From IMG/VR virus record IMGVR_UViG_3300002026_000067, positions 1-62,836 of that record: a DNA stretch of 62,836 nucleotides, one strand, 5' to 3'. Positions 120-53,767 of the stretch are shown piece after piece (within the stretch, counting starts at the first letter, position 1; each line of letters starts with the position of its first letter). Made by a program: the position numbers and the translations under genes. This DNA is from a virus (Duplodnaviria; Caudoviricetes). The notes below the pieces were generated by a model. The model worked only from the letters and a program-made list of their open reading frames with translations. It was not told the DNA's origin and did not search any database.

Positions 120-1765
120 TATGCTTCCTCTGCCGGTGCCTCATCAGGTACTTCTGGCGCTGCAGTTTCGGCTTCAGCATCATTACCCTCATCTGGTAAA
201 TCTAATCCAGTATCGTCTGAAGGTTCTTCACTTGGTACTTCACCTGCAGGAGCTTCATCTGCAGGAGCTTCAATTTTAATCGGCTCTCTATTTTCATAAA
301 CAGCAGGATCATAAATCTGTTGATCATCTGAAACCGTTCCAGTATCAATGATACCGCGTTCTTGTTTAACCAAAGCTTCATTCATTTGAATTTCATCTTC
401 AGTCAGACCTAAGTAACGTTTGAGGATAAACTTCTTCGATAGATACTTAATACCATCTGCAGAGTTGAAAGTATTAATCAAATCACCATCAAGTGCAGCT
501 TGTCTGTATAGAGCGAAGTTTTGTGGATCAGGTAACTTTAATTCGAATAAGTCTGGATCAACCTTAATACCAGTACTTGTTAAATAAACCTTAAATTGAT
601 CATCAAAGGTCTGTTCAATTTTAGTTTGAAGACGCTTAACAAAATTCGCAAAACGTAATTCTTCAATATATGCTATACCAACTTTACCATCATTAAATTG
701 AGCGCCTTGAGCATCCTGACCAGACATATAAGAGGTAGGAACTCGTAATCCACGGAATACTTTCTTTTGGAAGTAAAGTAGATCGGTATTCTCACCAAGG
801 TTTTCACCGCCTGGAAGAGTTTCAACGCGTGAACCGCGACCAGTACCGGTAACAGGGAAGAAGTAGTCTTCACTTGACGACATTGGATTGTAAGTGCTGT
901 CAGTAAAGTCACCTAATTGACCAGGTATTCTCTTCTGACGAATATCATTCTTTACTTGTTCAAGGTATGCTTTAACACGTTGAGCTGGCATATTACCAAC
1001 ATCGATATAGAATGCGCGGCGTTCTGGTGCACGCACAATACGATAAATGATAATTGAGTCTTCCAACATCATCATCTGACGGAATACACGATAAACCGGC
1101 TGCAGAATTGAATCGCCAAATGGCATGGAGTCACCCATTTCATCTGATAAGGTGAAGTGAATAATACCTTTGGCTGGAATTACATTAAATTCAGCTTTGC
1201 CAGTAGCTGCATTATTCAATGATTGCTTTCTAAGATGATAAGCAATCTTTTCGCCATTTTCATTTATCTCAATACCGATAACTGTCTTAGGATCAAGAAA
1301 TTCCCATCTCTTTAAATCAGAAGTCTTCTTAAAGAAACAATCACCATACTTAATTAGATGACGCGCAACTCTAAAGATTCTGTTATCAAAATCCTGAAGG
1401 TTTGCCCAATGTCTAACCGCAGCACGAAGTGTTGTGACTACTGTTTCAGATACTGACTGATCTTCTTCATTTTGGTAATCAATCATAAATGGTAAACCTG
1501 TTCTATCATCCTGAACAGCCATTTCTTCAGCAATCGTGTCTAATGCCCGTGACACATCAGTATCAGAATCCATACTGTCATATTGCATATATCGTTGCAT
1601 ACGACTAGTAGCACCCTTAATAACTTGGGTGTACCATGCATAATTCATCATTGATGGGAAAGGTGAATTAGCAGCACTACTAATAGAGTCTTGTGCTAAT
1701 GTGGTATATTCTTTTTTAGGAGTTTGTGGTGTTACAATTCTCCAATAATCAACCCAGTTAGAAAT
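119..1765 (-). CDS. gp20: Portal vertex protein (T4 gp20 family); probable start is ATT at 1765 rather than the ORF-track ATG at 1816
   Basis: Motifs IIIYRIVRAPERRAFYIDVGNMP, EDYFFP, VETLPGGENLG and ELRFANFVKRLQ, plus an acidic tail. SD GGAG (1776-1773) lies 7 nt before the in-frame ATT. Confidence 0.95.
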   Translation of the reverse strand: MSNWVDYWRIVTPQTPKKEYTTLAQDSISSAANSPFPSMMNYAWYTQVIKGATSRMQRYMQYDSMDSDTDVSRALDTIAEEMAVQDDRTGLPFMIDYQNEEDQSVSETVVTTLRAAVRHWANLQDFDNRIFRVARHLIKYGDCFFKKTSDLKRWEFLDPKTVIGIEINENGEKIAYHLRKQSLNNAATGKAEFNVIPAKGIIHFTLSDEMGDSMPFGDSILQPVYRVFRQMMMLEDSIIIYRIVRAPERRAFYIDVGNMPAQRVKAYLEQVKNDIRQKRIPGQLGDFTDSTYNPMSSSEDYFFPVTGTGRGSRVETLPGGENLGENTDLLYFQKKVFRGLRVPTSYMSGQDAQGAQFNDGKVGIAYIEELRFANFVKRLQTKIEQTFDDQFKVYLTSTGIKVDPDLFELKLPDPQNFALYRQAALDGDLINTFNSADGIKYLSKKFILKRYLGLTEDEIQMNEALVKQERGIIDTGTVSDDQQIYDPAVYENREPIKIEAPADEAPAGEVPSEEPSDDTGLDLPDEGNDAEAETAAPEVPDEAPAEEA

Positions 1766-1766
1766 T

Positions 1767-2495
1767 TTACTTCTCCAATCTTGTAAATTTGATACCACAA
1801 TATGTGTTAGTATCATATACTGCTGTTAATACCTCTTTGTAATTAAAGTTGAATTTTTTACATAAATGTCTAAGAGATATTCTATCTATTATTTCACCAT
1901 TCTGTAAAATTAAACTAAATTCCATTTTAGCTTTTACCCAATACTCTCGATTACTTTGTTTAAGTTTTTCACTACCAATATACTTTTTACCTAATTTAGC
2001 TGCTGATATTTTTCGTATTACTTCAATTGGTCTTTTGCATCCTGTCATCGTTTCACTTAATTTTTTACGTGATGCATCAGTCCACACCCTTTTACTAACA
2101 GCCTCACTAATTTTTTTCTTAGCTTCATCAGTATGGTGCTTACCATAAAATGGATGATCCTTACCACCTTTACATCCTTGGCCGCCTGCGTAGATATTAG
2201 TTAATGGTCCGTTACCATTAAAACCTATTTCAGAAATAATTTTTTCTTCAAAGTCGAATGCCTCTTTTGCTGTTTCAAAAAATGCAATTTTTTGAATAAT
2301 AGGTTCTAATCCTATTGCTCTTATTTTCTGTATCTTTTGTGTAAATGGATGAGTATCTTCTCTACTTAAATGCCGATAACACCGAGTACCTGAACCCTTA
2401 CCAATATAGAAAGGTTCATAATCGAATTTTGTAAAACTGTTCTCGTAAATGCCTGGCTTTCGAGGATCCAAATAAACATACACATAATAAAACAT
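1767..2495 (-). CDS. GIY-YIG-type homing endonuclease with NUMOD3 repeats
   Basis: YYVYVY..PFYIGKG..R and a downstream conserved E and N (LTN); NUMOD3-like HPFYGKHHTDEAKKKISEA and related repeats. Confidence 0.85.
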   Translation of the reverse strand: MFYYVYVYLDPRKPGIYENSFTKFDYEPFYIGKGSGTRCYRHLSREDTHPFTQKIQKIRAIGLEPIIQKIAFFETAKEAFDFEEKIISEIGFNGNGPLTNIYAGGQGCKGGKDHPFYGKHHTDEAKKKISEAVSKRVWTDASRKKLSETMTGCKRPIEVIRKISAAKLGKKYIGSEKLKQSNREYWVKAKMEFSLILQNGEIIDRISLRHLCKKFNFNYKEVLTAVYDTNTYCGIKFTRLEK

Positions 2496-2523
2496 AACAA
2501 TCCACTAAACTAATATTATGTCT

Positions 2524-2531
2524 TATTTATA
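2524..2531 (-). promoter_or_regulatory. T4-type late promoter TATAAATA upstream of the GIY-YIG gene
   Basis: Exact TATAAATA on the minus strand, 28 nt before the ATG; gp55 is encoded in this window. Confidence 0.7.
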
Positions 2532-2533
2532 GT

Positions 2534-2569
2534 CTAGTGAAATAAATCTAAATCTGTCCATGTCGCCAT
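2534..2569 (-). pseudogene. Mini-ORF MATWTDLDLFH*, probable orphaned original 5' end of the portal gene
   Basis: SD AAGGA 6 nt upstream; MATWTD aligns with the portal N-terminus (M)SNWVD. Confidence 0.5.
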
Positions 2570-2588
2570 TCATATTCCTTTATAGTTA

Positions 2589-5847: not shown

Positions 5848-5855
5848 TATAAATA
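5848..5855 (+). promoter_or_regulatory. Late promoter TATAAATA for the gp26-like gene
   Basis: Exact consensus in the divergent intergenic region. Confidence 0.7.
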
Positions 5856-5869
5856 GCATTGACATTGAT

Positions 5870-5877
5870 TATTTATA
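5870..5877 (-). promoter_or_regulatory. Late promoter TATAAATA for the tape-measure-like gene
   Basis: Exact consensus on the minus strand. Confidence 0.7.
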
Positions 5878-8383: not shown

Positions 8384-9229
8384 ATGTTTTTAACTAACAA
8401 ATACACCAACTTGTACAACAGCATTATCCAAAATTCAATACTACGAAATTGGACTTCTACAATAGCACCAGTTTATACAGAAATGCATCATATTATTCCT
8501 CGTTGTTGTGAAGGAACAAATGATTTATCTAATCTAGCCTGTTTAACAGCTAGAGAGCATTATTTGGTGCATCTGTTACTAACAAAAATGTTACACAAAA
8601 CAAATCCATTAATCAAAAAACTATACATGGCATACGACTTAATGTGTATGAGTTACAAGGACCCAAATCAACTTAAGTTTAGATACAAACCACGTACATC
8701 TATACTTTACTCACTAGCATCCAAATTATCAAGAGACTCTAAATTAGGCATTCCACGTAGTGATGAAACAAAAAGAAAAATTTCAGAAGCACTAAAAGCC
8801 CGTGATGACAATGGATGGACTGGTAGAAAACACTCTGATAAATCAAAGGAACAAATGTCTAAAGCAAAACTTGGTAGACCTGGTGCTAAACTTGGTACTA
8901 AATTATCAGATGAGGCTAGAAAAAATATTTCTGATGCTCATAAAGGTTTACCAGCATGGAATAAGGGAAAGAAATCATCAGCTGAAACGAGAGCTAAACT
9001 TTCTGCATCACATAAAGGTAAACAGTCAAACAATAAAGGTAAAACTCCATCTGAAGAAACACGAAAAAGAATTTCTGAAGGTCAAACAGGTTATATGTGG
9101 ATTCATAATGACTTATTACTTCATCAAACACGTATTAAACGAGGAATAATTTTACCTGAAGGTTATGAAATTGGTAAATTATCACATAACCTTCAACTAC
9201 TTCGTAAATTACCGGCTGCGACCACGTGA
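8384..9229 (+). CDS. HNH homing endonuclease with multiple NUMOD3 repeats
   Basis: EMHHIIPR..EGTND..NL..LTAREHYLVH motif and about five S.ETK.KISE-type repeats. Confidence 0.88.
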   Translation: MFLTNKYTNLYNSIIQNSILRNWTSTIAPVYTEMHHIIPRCCEGTNDLSNLACLTAREHYLVHLLLTKMLHKTNPLIKKLYMAYDLMCMSYKDPNQLKFRYKPRTSILYSLASKLSRDSKLGIPRSDETKRKISEALKARDDNGWTGRKHSDKSKEQMSKAKLGRPGAKLGTKLSDEARKNISDAHKGLPAWNKGKKSSAETRAKLSASHKGKQSNNKGKTPSEETRKRISEGQTGYMWIHNDLLLHQTRIKRGIILPEGYEIGKLSHNLQLLRKLPAATT

Positions 9230-9925
9230 TACAGAGAGACCACAATAGCGTGGGTTGATATCCGCATCAACCCGATCTAAGAAAAATCCATGATTCTTTT
9301 TGAAGAACAATGCTTCCCAATTTGCAATAAGTGGAACACCGAGTTTAGAAAGCTTTGGTCGCAGAATAATGTATTTGTGATTGTCAGGACGGTAATTTTC
9401 AACATAAACAGAAGTTCCTAGTCCTGCAAAATCGATTCGATGAACACTGGAAGGAAGATATGGCCGAGTACCTGCAGCTTTAATCCAATCAGTAACAGTG
9501 ATTTCTTCAAAGCTAAATGTACCTTCAGGAAAATGAGCACTATGAAGAGTAACAGGATCAGGATAAGCAAGTTGTTTATTCGTCTTATGCTCTTCAGTAA
9601 AGCGACGAACTGATTGAAGCATATTATCAAATGTGATTTGGTTGACAGTGGATGGACGGCGTTTAACTACAGCTTTCAGATAATCCATTGACGGTGGAAC
9701 ATACGGTTTATTGCTACCAAGTTGTTTAGCATTGTATGGTGAAAGCGCATCGAATAACAATTTGTAAAGCATAAAGGTGCTTGATACTACATTGCCTGCA
9801 TCATCCCAATTTTCACCAAGTCGGCGAATTGCATCCAGACGGACTGCACCAGCGCCTCTATACTTCGGGTTGTTATTTTCAATTACTGAATTCGTTTCCT
9901 GAGTCTGTGCGGTTGCCGTATACAT
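9209..9925 (-). CDS. Hypothetical protein
   Basis: 238-aa ORF with SD AAGGAG. Confidence 0.75.
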   Translation of the reverse strand: MYTATAQTQETNSVIENNNPKYRGAGAVRLDAIRRLGENWDDAGNVVSSTFMLYKLLFDALSPYNAKQLGSNKPYVPPSMDYLKAVVKRRPSTVNQITFDNMLQSVRRFTEEHKTNKQLAYPDPVTLHSAHFPEGTFSFEEITVTDWIKAAGTRPYLPSSVHRIDFAGLGTSVYVENYRPDNHKYIILRPKLSKLGVPLIANWEALFFKKNHGFFLDRVDADINPRYCGLSVSRGRSR

Positions 9926-50310: not shown

Positions 50311-51306
50311 GTGTTAACAGCTAAATTTTTACAATTTATAACACAGGAAAACGATCTAACCTCTGACACGGTTAGAGGAACTGTTTGGTCCTGGGCTATA
50401 TCTAATAAAAACGGTTATCATACGATGTTGGCTCATAATTCTAAATTGTGTGAATTAAATGCTATAATTATGTCATATTATGGAACAACGCGGCAAGAAA
50501 AATTATTTAATTTTACTCATAACACGGTCAATCCTAAATGTGAGCATTGCAGTTCAGTAGATGTCCATTTAGTTAATGGTTCTGCGTTTAATGGTTGGGA
50601 TCATTTTTGTTGTAATCGTTGTGCTAAAAGTAGTGAAATGAATAAGCATAATTATATGGAAACCTGTTTAAGTAGATACGGTATGCACGTAGCTAAAACG
50701 CCGCAATATCGTAAAAAATATAAAGAAACCTGGCTTAAAAACGAAGATAAAAACAGAGTTGCTATTGAAAAATCAAAAATAACTAGACGTGAAACGTGTT
50801 TAGTTCGATATGGTGCTACTAATGCATGGGGTAACACTGAAGTTCAAGCAAAAGCTCAAAAATCAGCTAATACCAGTATGCATAAATATAAATTATGGAT
50901 ATCACCAAATGGTAAAGAATATCAAGTACGCGGATATGAACCTTTGGCTATTACTCTATTGTTAAATTCAGGTTTAGATGAAAATGATATATTAGCAGAT
51001 GATTTTAATACGCCCGTTATTAAATGGGTCGACGGAGTAAATGATTTTATCAGATCTTATCACCCAGATATTTACATTAAACCACTTAATACATTGATTG
51101 AGGTTAAAAGCACGTATTGGTTTATGCGGCAACCTGATAAATGTAAAAAAACGCTGATGGCCGCACAATCAGCTGGATATAAAATGGAAATATGGGTATT
51201 TAATGGTCAAAACGAACTATTATCAAAAATTGACTGTGTAAATAAGATTGACACGGTGATATCGATTATCAAGGAGAAAAGCAATGCAAAATGCGTTAAT
51301 TACTAA
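50311..51306 (+). CDS. Putative homing endonuclease (zinc finger, ETCL.RYG repeats, PD-(D/E)XK domain)
   Basis: CEHC...CCNRC, ETCLSRYG and ETCLVRYG, YHPDIY...LIEVKS; overlaps the start of the next gene. Confidence 0.7.
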   Translation: MLTAKFLQFITQENDLTSDTVRGTVWSWAISNKNGYHTMLAHNSKLCELNAIIMSYYGTTRQEKLFNFTHNTVNPKCEHCSSVDVHLVNGSAFNGWDHFCCNRCAKSSEMNKHNYMETCLSRYGMHVAKTPQYRKKYKETWLKNEDKNRVAIEKSKITRRETCLVRYGATNAWGNTEVQAKAQKSANTSMHKYKLWISPNGKEYQVRGYEPLAITLLLNSGLDENDILADDFNTPVIKWVDGVNDFIRSYHPDIYIKPLNTLIEVKSTYWFMRQPDKCKKTLMAAQSAGYKMEIWVFNGQNELLSKIDCVNKIDTVISIIKEKSNAKCVNY

Positions 51307-52069: not shown

Positions 52070-53767
52070 ATGAAACAAAAATTGTTAAAATATGGCTTTC
52101 TTGCTAAAGATGGTACAAAACTAAATCCTAATATCAGACACGCTATTATGCGTAACCCTGAGTTTTATACTGAAATTGAAAACACGACATCTTTTCTAGT
52201 AAATCCCACATCACAAGAGCGGGTATATTGTATTCTGTATAATATCACTGAAACACCAATATGTGTAGCGTGTGGCAAGGTTATAAAATTTAAGTTAGGA
52301 TATGCAAAATGCTGTTCTTTAAAATGTAATATTGTTTATGAAAAGAACACACTAGACATCACAACAGGTAAAACACTGTATCAACTAAGAAAAGAAAAAG
52401 TAATATTAAGCAATAAGAAAATAGGAATTGATGGTTTATCCGGGTACGAACGAGGTTCCCGTAAGGGTGCAGATATAAGAGCAACACAGCTAGTTGATGG
52501 TAAAACCGGACAAGAGATAGCTACAAATAAAGCATTAAGCACAAAAGCGTTAATCGGTTTAGATGGTAAAACTGGGCATCAACGGTCTAATGAGAAGATG
52601 GTTAAAACTTCGCGTAAACTTGGTAGTTTTGAAAGAGCTAAATATAAACGCAAAAATACCATGCTTACAACCTTTATTGATGGAAAATCAATAGAACAAA
52701 TTAGACACGAAAATGCTGCACTGTCTAGATTTACTAACATCATAGACACGAAAATTAAATTACTGAGTGCTGATTATGACATAGTAGATCGAGCTGAATA
52801 TTTTGAGACAAGAACATCATCATGGAAATGTAAAAAATGCAGCGACATTATAGCTAACCATAGTTTTTATAATGGACAAAATCCACGATGTCCAAGATGT
52901 TTTCCTCCTGTGCAATCACAACCTCAAGAGGATATTTTTAATCTATTATCACAATATGCGACCGTTATCAGAAATACTCGATCAGTATTAAAAGGTTTAG
53001 AATTAGACTTATATATTCCTGACAACAAATTAGCTATAGAATTTAATGGCGTTTACTGGCATAGTGATAAATTTTTAGATGCTAACTATCATTTAAATAA
53101 AACACTCGAATGTGAAAAATTAGGTATCACGTTAATTCACGTGTTTGAAGATGAATGGGTAAATAAACGGGATATCGTAAAGTCGAGATTATTACATATT
53201 CTCGGTGTTACATCAACAAAACTGTATGCTAGAAAATGTGAAATTATTGAGTTGCTAACTAGTGAAAAAGATATATTTTTAGATGATAACCATATTCAGG
53301 GACACGATATATCTAAACTGAAATATGGTTTAAAATATGAAAATGAGTTAGTTGCAGTTATGACGTTTGGTAAACCTCGCTTTAATAAAAATTACGAATG
53401 GGAATTGATTCGTTATGCATCACGTAAAGATACGAGCGTTATCGGCGGCGCAGCGAAATTAATGTCACACTTTATTAAGCAAATTAAACCTAAATCAATT
53501 ATAAGTTATGCTGATCGTAGATGGTCTTCTGGTAAGCTGTATTATAAGCTAAAATTTGCGTTGCTAAATAAAACATTGCCAGGATACACCTATCTAGTAA
53601 AAGGCCGTCGTGAAAATAGAATGAAATACCAAAAACACAACTTGAAAAAACTTTTGCCCAATTTTAGTGTATCACTTAGTGAAAGTGAAAATATGCGTGA
53701 TGCTGGATTTTATCGAATTTATGATTGTGGTAATCTTGTATTTACATGGCAATCAGAAACACAATAA
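52070..53767 (+). CDS. Hef-like homing endonuclease (zinc ribbons, Vsr-like nuclease, C-terminal Hef-type domain)
   Basis: ELDLYIP..KLAIEFNGVYWHS, IHVFEDEW, KLYARKC, GGA.KL..F, SYADRRWS.G and IYDCG. Confidence 0.8.
   Translation: MKQKLLKYGFLAKDGTKLNPNIRHAIMRNPEFYTEIENTTSFLVNPTSQERVYCILYNITETPICVACGKVIKFKLGYAKCCSLKCNIVYEKNTLDITTGKTLYQLRKEKVILSNKKIGIDGLSGYERGSRKGADIRATQLVDGKTGQEIATNKALSTKALIGLDGKTGHQRSNEKMVKTSRKLGSFERAKYKRKNTMLTTFIDGKSIEQIRHENAALSRFTNIIDTKIKLLSADYDIVDRAEYFETRTSSWKCKKCSDIIANHSFYNGQNPRCPRCFPPVQSQPQEDIFNLLSQYATVIRNTRSVLKGLELDLYIPDNKLAIEFNGVYWHSDKFLDANYHLNKTLECEKLGITLIHVFEDEWVNKRDIVKSRLLHILGVTSTKLYARKCEIIELLTSEKDIFLDDNHIQGHDISKLKYGLKYENELVAVMTFGKPRFNKNYEWELIRYASRKDTSVIGGAAKLMSHFIKQIKPKSIISYADRRWSSGKLYYKLKFALLNKTLPGYTYLVKGRRENRMKYQKHNLKKLLPNFSVSLSESENMRDAGFYRIYDCGNLVFTWQSETQ

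Follow-up and report, generated by a model that had tools for sequence, protein, structure and literature searches.

Where does a phage portal gene begin when a homing endonuclease gene (HEG) occupies the place where its first codons should be? The question is raised by one end of a 62,836-nucleotide (nt) stretch of DNA, here called the window, that makes up IMG/VR virus record IMGVR_UViG_3300002026_000067 (Duplodnaviria; Caudoviricetes). The window is estimated to represent ~18% of a genome, a share that points to a jumbo phage. The whole locus lies on the minus strand (window letters and open reading frame [ORF] listing): the portal gene is directly preceded by a GIY-YIG HEG, and ahead of the HEG is a very short ORF that reads like the start of a portal gene. 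The answer we favor, with a probability of roughly three in four, is that a free-standing HEG cassette landed in the 5′ end of the portal gene and split it, and that the portal is now initiated at an AUU codon at 1765, probably coupled to termination of HEG translation. Every coordinate given for this locus in a first-pass annotation, made by a model from the letters alone, proved correct, and the parts needed for the argument are as follows.

2580–2575, minus strand: AAGGAA, Shine-Dalgarno (SD) sequence of the putative ancestral portal start, now serving the stub (anti-SD duplex −5.6 kcal/mol, spacing 5)
2569–2534, minus strand: stub ORF of 11 codons, MATWTDLDLFH (ATG 2569, stop TAG 2536–2534)
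2569–2552, minus strand: stub codons 1–6, putative remnant of the original portal 5′ end (match to the family N-terminus)
2495–1767, minus strand: GIY-YIG/NUMOD3 HEG, 242 amino acids (aa) (ATG 2495, TAA 1769–1767; Pfam, PHROG)
1816–1814, minus strand: in-frame ATG, rival portal start that would add a 17-residue extension (chosen by gene callers)
1776–1773, minus strand: GGAG, predicted SD for the portal, inside the last codons of the HEG (duplex −6.4 kcal/mol, spacing 6)
1765–1763, minus strand: ATT, proposed portal start codon (aligns with the start codon of all relatives)
1765–1748, minus strand: portal codons 1–6, putative second copy of the portal 5′ end (match to the family N-terminus)
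1765–119, minus strand: portal gene, 548 codons counted from the ATT (Portal_T4, PHROG_213)
5822–2589, minus strand: 1077-aa virion-module gene, syntenic left neighbor of the portal (ORF listing; stop TAG 2591–2589)

The portal ORF is of the T4 type (Pfam Portal_T4, 2e-98; PHROG_213, 7e-102); after the ATT its frame reads TCT AAC TGG GTT GAT TAT TGG and remains open to 119. The ORF ahead of it has its own ATG and stop codon, in a frame that differs from that of the portal. In Pfam, its residues 3–104 score 37.3 bits with the LEM-3-like GIY-YIG domain PF22945 (cut-off 27), and a NUMOD3 DNA-binding module (PF07460) scores 38.1 bits (cut-off 20.4). The ORF also has a match to PHROG_314 (“homing endonuclease,” 4e-18) and shows the motifs YVY...FYIGKG...R...E...N when read by eye; the best match to a solved structure is weak (E 0.25). 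Its GC content is 31.4%, compared with 38.5%–38.7% in the flanking genes, and is among the five lowest of the 47 called genes. On its domain content, this gene is a free-standing GIY-YIG homing endonuclease with a Seg/I-TevI-like architecture.

The identity of the two putative portal beginnings can be judged from the protein family. The best 120 of 6258 matches at E ≤ 1e-50, the window's own protein included, were taken from a protein search and combined with two phage portals to give 121 non-self portal proteins. Exactly six residues precede the motif [YF]W[RK]I in 113 of these (seven in two, five in one, and four in two); three of the 121 are N-terminally short calls, and none has an extended N-terminus. 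The window portal is 82% identical to the proteins P0004 and P0005, and the closest portals among the matches listed begin MASWVD-YWRIV (82%), MAGQWTD-YWRIV (82%), and MASTWTD-YWRVV (79%). At the locus level, in a first set of 21 loci (from IMG/VR, JGI metagenomes, and two phage records), the portal ATG lies 5–7 codons before [YF][WY][RK]I[VI], and M-[AS]-x-W-x-[NS] is the form of most of these starts. Among cultured phages the nearest is Ralstonia phage RsoM2USA (portal 54% identical), for which the tblastn alignment begins exactly at the window ATT, matched to the annotated M1 (MGTLTN-YYRIV). Both MATWTD in the stub and xSNWVD after the HEG are within the natural variation of the nearest clade. 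Because relatives start M-[AS]-x-W-x-[NSD] directly ahead of YWRIV, both copies in the window are, by this comparison, true portal 5′ ends. Starts of this kind had been anticipated by the first-pass annotation for relatives that lack the nuclease, and they were found (MATW.., MASWVD, MAGQWTD, and MASTWTD, followed by YWRIV). No near-identical DNA was found in phage records; at the DNA level, nothing closer to the window than 63% identity turned up in IMG/VR or the JGI metagenome contigs, and the relatives with 79%–82% identical portals are known as proteins only.

The stub itself (ATG GCG ACA TGG ACA GAT TTA GAT TTA TTT CAC TAG) appears to sit at the ancestral portal site, and a chance origin is unlikely. 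It begins 19 nt past the stop of the 1077-aa gene, which is the position of the portal start in relatives, and the geometry of its AAGGAA is also that of their portal starts. The 1077-aa gene matched no Pfam family, and in 8 of the 21 loci from relatives tblastn placed a homolog of it immediately ahead of the portal. Just one of the 2781 ATG triplets in the window opens the pattern M[AS]xWx[NSD], and this is the stub; when the 93-nt spacer was shuffled 300,000 times, 68 of the shuffled sequences contained the pattern. Between the two copies, 8 of 18 nt (10 identical) and three of five residues are different, and the 25 nt ahead of the stub are unrelated to the 25 nt ahead of the ATT copy when the two are compared directly. 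The second copy is a divergent but natural-looking allele, resembling the MASWVD start of an 82%-identical relative. The earlier proposal that the HEG displaced the portal start and left a stub describes the layout correctly, and both copies fit the family N-terminus. Its further suggestion of a recoded replacement 5′ end needs amendment: a second copy is present, but the differences in both nucleotides and residues do not amount to synonymous recoding.

This arrangement could also be read as a self-splicing group I intron, in which the ~790-nt insert carries an endonuclease and is removed to join the stub codons to TAT TGG. Splicing of this kind would restore MATWTD-YWRIV, the 5′ piece ends in U (GAU), and phage structural genes can hold introns (PMC3706429, in the part of the text available). 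However, a search of Rfam over 1500–2800 gave no intron family at E ≤ 10 (the best relevant match, to a plastid group II fragment, reached 16 bits where the gathering score is 140), and the ORF takes up all but 57 nt of the insert. Thus, the first-pass annotation was right to consider the flanks too short for a group I intron core. Moreover, group I introns are expected to end in a terminal G, and the base before TAT is a U. An intron would have no use for a second full six-codon copy and an SD to go with it, and the relatives that carry an HEG show the same non-intron layout. We consider the intron reading highly improbable. An intein was considered and rejected: a stop codon closes the stub, the HEG and the portal are in different frames, and no Hint family was found with Pfam.

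Relatives of the locus indicate that the start of the portal gene is a hot spot for HEGs. A second harvest of loci was seeded with the relative P0071, and the two sets together comprise 94 loci, of which 88 have an assignable portal start and 73 are distinct. The counts leave out five loci in which the N-terminus is not included (L089, L099, L103, L109, and L123), one of unclear register that by eye has a GTG start (L117), and loci that are distant or partial (L017–L031 and L058–L066). An HEG-like ORF is directly upstream of the portal in 9 of the 73 distinct loci, and in 61 the large upstream gene directly abuts the portal; the HEG of the window is absent from all 21 loci of the first set. 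Among these related genomes, therefore, HEG presence and absence are polymorphic at one fixed site. Six of the loci (L069, L070, L084, L115, L116, and L121) share one HEG family, with mutual identities of 38%–80% (mostly 44%–66%) and PHROG_314 matches of 5e-16 to 6e-23 in the three that were scored (L070, L084, and L115); the family has no BLAST similarity to the window HEG (E 7.5). The other three HEGs at the site are of the HNH type: one in L141 (HNH 22.1 bits against a cut-off of 21.4, plus NUMOD3), one in L013 (HNH below cut-off), and one in L016 that was recognized by eye. The last of these is a 68-codon remnant (L016:2157–2363), just upstream of the portal, of an ORF that is whole in L013, and it looks like a decaying HEG at the hot spot. 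As for the window HEG, its relatives in IMG/VR are only partial (the best full-domain match is 30% over residues 1–170, with pieces of the NUMOD3 region higher), and none of them adjoins a portal. Its best phage match, in Xoo-sp13 (33%), adjoins a recombination nuclease gene, not a portal.

Two of the HEG-bearing relatives show how the first codons of the portal can be taken over. In L070 the left flank is homologous to that of L101, which lacks an HEG, through the end of the upstream gene, the SD, and ATGT, after which the HEG follows (44 of 56 positions identical by our count, including the last 19). Homology resumes at portal codon 2, right after ...GGAGAACTAAA ATT. The HEG of L070 has taken over the portal's own start codon (ATG), and the portal begins anew at ATT. 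L121 has two copies of the first four portal codons: the left one, ATG GCG CAG TTT, is fused with the HEG (MAQF-VTYLT...), and the portal is opened by ATG GCA CAG TTT AGT... after a TGATG overlap. The window has the longest such fossil seen, with six codons and two copies that have diverged. Close spacing is also shared: the HEG stop is ≤1 nt from the portal start in 7 of the 9 HEG-bearing loci and in the window, and the upstream stop is this close in 6 of the 61 HEG-less loci.

The homologous portal start codon is distributed as follows.

ATG: 52 of 73 distinct loci
GTG: 8 of 73 distinct loci
TTG: 6 of 73 distinct loci
ATT: 4 of 73 distinct loci (L070, L076, L084, and L087)
ATC: 3 of 73 distinct loci (L078, L079, and L115)

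The seven loci with ATT or ATC come from different datasets, and one of them was recovered twice (L079 and L080 are identical in two datasets). In these loci the SD duplex is −6.6 to −9.2 kcal/mol with a spacing of 5–6, and the portal ORFs have 562–581 codons, except for one that runs off its locus at 471+. None has an in-frame ATG, GTG, or TTG in the open frame upstream, and the next canonical in-frame codon is 19–38 codons downstream. Codons 2–18 are under purifying selection, with a ratio of nonsynonymous to synonymous polymorphism (pN/pS) of 0.17; for example, L078 and L079 differ in this interval by five synonymous and no nonsynonymous changes, and L076 and L084 by five synonymous changes and one nonsynonymous change. 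Purifying selection together with the lack of an upstream canonical start argues that the region after the ATT or ATC is translated in these seven relatives, and AUU or AUC would be the sole plausible start there. In all seven, then, an SD at a suitable distance coincides with coding constraint downstream and no usable canonical start; the window has the SD, but also the in-frame ATG at 1816.

ATT or ATC is found in 4 of 10 loci with an HEG (the window included) and in 3 of 61 without, a suggestive excess (Fisher p 0.006, shared ancestry ignored). Because three HEG-less loci (L087, L078, and L079) have ATT or ATC, the weak start may be a family trait that perhaps travels with the HEG by co-conversion and was not necessarily created by it. 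The first-pass claim that the HEG supplied a new ATT therefore holds in that the ATT opens the portal ORF, and does not hold in making the HEG its necessary source. More generally, a GTG or TTG preceded by a strong SD opens the portal in many relatives that lack an HEG (L073–L075, L083, L085, L090, L098, L100, L102, L104, L105, and L108), the start is other than ATG in 21 of the 73 distinct loci, and weak starts look clade-wide.

Which codon does the window portal use? Gene callers choose ATG 1816 (P0003, 565 aa), in which case a 17-residue extension would overlap the 3′ end of the HEG and the ATT would encode an internal isoleucine. The ATG is in frame, the frame is open from 1825 (it is closed upstream by TAA at 1828–1826), AAGAGG upstream offers a duplex of −7.1 kcal/mol, and AUG is far more efficient than AUU as a start (bioRxiv 10.1101/063800, in the portion accessible). 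However, the spacing of this SD is 13, and none of the 26 strong-SD genes that served as a reference set for the window exceeds 9 nt (range 0–9, with 18 of 26 at 5–7). The SD of the ATT, with −6.4 kcal/mol, has a spacing of 6; its GGAG stands 7 nt ahead of the codon. The extension is found in 0 of 121 related proteins, so the relatives do not share it, as they might have had the first-pass annotation been wrong about the start. Twenty open codons above the ATT have a probability of ~0.25 by chance (about 1 in 4, our own estimate), and the seven ATT/ATC relatives have no such ATG and are still under purifying selection in this region. The next in-frame ATGs downstream of the ATT (1651 and 1648) have no SD. 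A single base (A 1766) separates the HEG stop codon TAA from the ATT, and the window junction (ttGGAGaagTAAa ATT TCt) is nearly the same as that of L070 (aaGGAGaacTAAa ATT TCg), despite GC contents of 37% and 55%. Predicted folds around the ATT do not differ from those of shuffled sequences. Overall, the window portal most likely starts at AUU 1765, and we regard initiation at ATG 1816 as improbable.

It could be supposed that the ATT is simply an assembly or sequencing error for ATG, given that a single base is involved and that contigs were inspected, not raw reads. At 1763–1765, where the first-pass annotation had allowed for ATG, a Logan contig of run X1 reads ATT; it covers 1717–2640 at a depth of 9.4 with zero differences. 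Run X1 is probably the source sample, so this is an independent assembly but not independent DNA. As ATT or ATC also recurs at the same codon in seven other distinct loci, one of them seen identically in two datasets (L079 and L080), there is very little chance that an error is responsible. No HEG-less joint or variant was seen in the Logan contigs at 7–9× depth, although contigs drop rare variants, and at this depth the contig breaks at 1710/1717 and 2628–2640 are uninformative.

A different possibility is that insertion of the HEG inactivated the portal, in which case the window would represent a defective or transient genotype and the ATT would be a decay mutation. The noncanonical start codon is in line with this idea, as is the metagenomic source. 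But the portal ORF is intact over 548 codons, and the first 42 residues after the ATT are ~76% identical to P0004 (counted by eye), against 82% overall. The seven distinct relatives with ATT or ATC have long intact ORFs under purifying selection, and no variant was present in the contigs at 7–9× assembly depth. Inactivation is thus very improbable.

The reading that we prefer, in which the HEG cassette split the portal 5′ end and left the gene functional, can be laid out as a series of steps. A jumbo phage would have received a GIY-YIG/NUMOD3 HEG cassette inside the 5′ end of its T4-type portal gene, an essential gene. The insertion would have cut off the initiation region and the first six codons that the portal originally used, and these persist as a dead 11-codon stub. 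What heads the intact portal ORF is the second, divergent copy of six codons, with its SD in the last codons of the HEG and an ATT start. Ribosomes would initiate at AUU 1765 in one of two ways, by binding directly at the GGAG or after terminating at the HEG UAA one base upstream, with low but sufficient portal output by either route. The portal is present in a fixed number of 12 copies per capsid, and the low output from AUU may be enough for these 12. The nuclease presumably cuts HEG-less portal alleles near the start codon, and repair would copy the HEG together with the adjoining portal initiation region, so that the ATT allele would spread with the HEG. The split or diverged target would make the carrier genome immune. 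Finally, the location of the portal's SD inside the HEG may discourage HEG loss, as is described for promoters embedded in T4 segG, and the divergence of the two copies (10 of 18 identical) may prevent excision by recombination between repeats.

Expression of the HEG may itself be controlled, by two predicted features of the spacer between the stub and the HEG.

2531–2524, minus strand: TATAAATA box, T4-type late-promoter motif, 29 nt before the HEG ATG
2541–2501, minus strand: predicted 12-base-pair hairpin, the 3′ arm of which pairs the SD-like GUGGA (2505–2501) of the HEG

We take TATAAATA to be the T4 late-promoter consensus, and between 2600 and 1700 no sequence other than the box at 2531–2524 matches it with ≤1 mismatch. 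Four of the seven copies in the window are in the 5.6% that is called intergenic, each facing a gene (2531, 5848, 27893, and 47550), and a fifth, at 5877, is 48 nt before the 1077-aa gene. The boxes at 5848 (+), 5877 (−), 27893 (+), and 47550 (+) face, respectively, a baseplate-like gene, the 1077-aa gene, a gp25-like cluster, and an FG-GAP repeat protein. Boxes at structural-module genes are consistent with T4-type late promoters in this phage. A terminator scan found no minus-strand terminators between the genes of the locus, and because of this the portal is probably transcribed from the 5877 and 2531 boxes. The hairpin has a minimum free energy of −12.4 kcal/mol (z −2.8; 3 of 200 shuffles as stable). 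Its 5′ arm holds the stop codon of the stub and the start of TATAAATA, which is at the junction of the 5′ arm and the loop, and an RNA that begins after the box would be unstructured (−0.7 kcal/mol). The HEG appears to be controlled in the manner of T4 endonucleases, with a late-promoter box inside a hairpin that would hide the HEG ribosome-binding site on read-through RNA. Because the stub stop codon is in the 5′ arm, ribosomes finishing the stub might open the hairpin.

Several points weigh against the account given above. The window is only ~18% of a genome and comes from a metagenome, which by itself does not establish that the phage is viable, and no RNA dataset carrying the stretch was listed. 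In E. coli reporters, AUU initiation was only 0.02%–3% of that from AUG (bioRxiv 10.1101/063800, available part), and ATG 1816, in frame and with the stronger SD duplex, is a candidate for a minor or even the main start. ATT and ATC occur without an HEG, so the HEG need not have supplied the ATT, and the association between the two weakens to p 0.025 when the window is left out, uncorrected for phylogeny. The closest relatives (P0004–P0006) were compared as proteins, and the borders and origin proposed here for the insert in the window are provisional. Lastly, TATAAATA is not enriched (seven copies in the window against ~12 expected from composition), and the fold of the whole region is not unusual (z −1.07 and 0.28).

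Other mobile elements were noted in related portal genes and elsewhere in the window. Two portal proteins, P0006 (937 aa, 79%) and P0022 (922 aa, 60%), carry a PF14890 intein with an HNH-like motif after ...STYNP(M/A)C, so that both inteins and free-standing HEGs have invaded the portal gene of this clade. In L100:1501–3696 and L136:111–2504, the tblastn match to a 566-aa portal spans ~500 and ~890 extra bases, respectively, which suggests further insertions in the portal ORF (intein, intron, or HEG). An apparent split portal in Salmonella phage SD-1_S14 (L067, 1441–3133) was rejected as a further case: it consists of two overlapping coding sequences with no insert, probably owing to a frameshift or sequencing error. 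The window has a second HEG-like ORF at 8384–9229 (+), of 281 aa, with three NUMOD3 stretches (5.8e-22) and a match to PHROG_655 (3e-36). It is antisense between two minus-strand genes, overlaps the end of 9209–9925 by 21 nt, and is only weakly similar to the portal-linked HEG. In the tail-fiber region, one of two ORFs, 50311–51306 (+) and 52070–53767 (+), matches DUF7487 (3.6e-31) and the other has a weak restriction-endonuclease-like match (MTES_1575, below cut-off); these may be further mobile or nuclease genes.

A broader interpretation, to which we would give slightly less than even odds, is that the window belongs to a clade of jumbo phages with a T4 core in which portal starts are routinely weak (AUU and AUC included) and the junction just ahead of the portal is an HEG hot spot. 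There, HEGs would practice a “start-swap,” in which the HEG seizes or severs the portal ribosome-binding site and first codons and returns an SD, a coupled AUU, and, where needed, duplicated codons. If so, a free-standing HEG can live inside an essential ORF without intron, intein, or bypass, and portal synthesis is tied to the HEG. Apart from this, comparative evidence from at least seven independent metagenomic phages indicates that a major structural gene of phages can begin at AUU or AUC. All of these starts escape gene callers, which either lengthen the protein (565 aa in the case of the window) or would be forced to shorten it (the next canonical codon being 19–38 codons downstream). Because the number of portal copies per capsid is fixed, the case also brings the tuning of portal dosage by phages, and its exploitation by selfish elements, within reach of testing.

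How does this locus compare with known systems? A literature search found no paper that describes an HEG at a portal start or an AUU or AUC portal start, and the available part of PMC10448857 has nothing relevant on duplication, remnants, start codons, or portals. AUU as the start of infC serves autoregulation by initiation factor 3 (IF3). Both infC and pcnB of E. coli have AUU as a genuine start with a normal SD (bioRxiv 10.1101/063800, accessible part). However, these are cellular regulatory cases, whereas the window has a phage structural gene at an HEG hot spot, and, unlike in infC and pcnB, ATT, ATC, GTG, and TTG alternate among the portal relatives.

With regard to control of the HEG, I-TevI, I-TevII, I-TevIII, segB, and Aeh1 mobE have a hairpin that sequesters the HEG ribosome-binding site on long transcripts, and a late promoter positioned to yield late RNA without the 5′ arm of the hairpin, which frees the site (PMC2988022). 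The hairpin and TATAAATA of the window match the I-TevI/segB/mobE scheme as a prediction only, and differ from it in that the read-through RNA is probably also late and that the stub stop is in the 5′ arm. For T4 segG/gene 32, segA, segE, mobB, and mobC, the available text of the same source describes how an essential gene depends on signals that lie within the ORF of the endonuclease ahead of it, a dependence that favors HEG retention. Those are embedded promoters; in the window it is an SD that is embedded, with stop/start coupling and a noncanonical start. It also describes, in the part available, Aeh1 mobE in nrdA and seg43(25) in gene 43, in which an HEG is inside an essential gene that is functional without splicing. 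In both of these the insertion is mid-gene and gives two subunits that reassemble, whereas here only 1–6 N-terminal codons are cut off, and they are replaced by a duplicate.

The nearest precedent is the MobA element in the T4 topoisomerase genes 39/60, a free-standing HEG inside a coding region. As given in the accessible part of bioRxiv 10.1101/2022.08.31.505936, MobA is an HNH enzyme, and its element encodes HomR, which is homologous to the displaced segment of the target; the insertion protects the genome from its own nuclease. The target makes two polypeptides with extensions, has a 50-nt translational bypass, and has lost 55–75 nt. The window is like the MobA element in having an element-linked copy of the displaced segment (ATT-SNWVD, compared with MATWTD in the stub). 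It is unlike it in that the nuclease is of the GIY-YIG type, nothing was deleted, and the old 5′ end is kept as a stub; in addition, the portal is not split, its ORF is continuous from the ATT with no bypass, and the replacement includes an SD and an ATT start. What is new relative to known systems is thus the duplication or usurpation of a 5′ end, with an SD embedded in the HEG and a stop/start-coupled AUU, and with neither a split protein nor a bypass. Beside introns and inteins on the one hand and gene splitting on the other, this would be a third way for an HEG to occupy an essential coding region.

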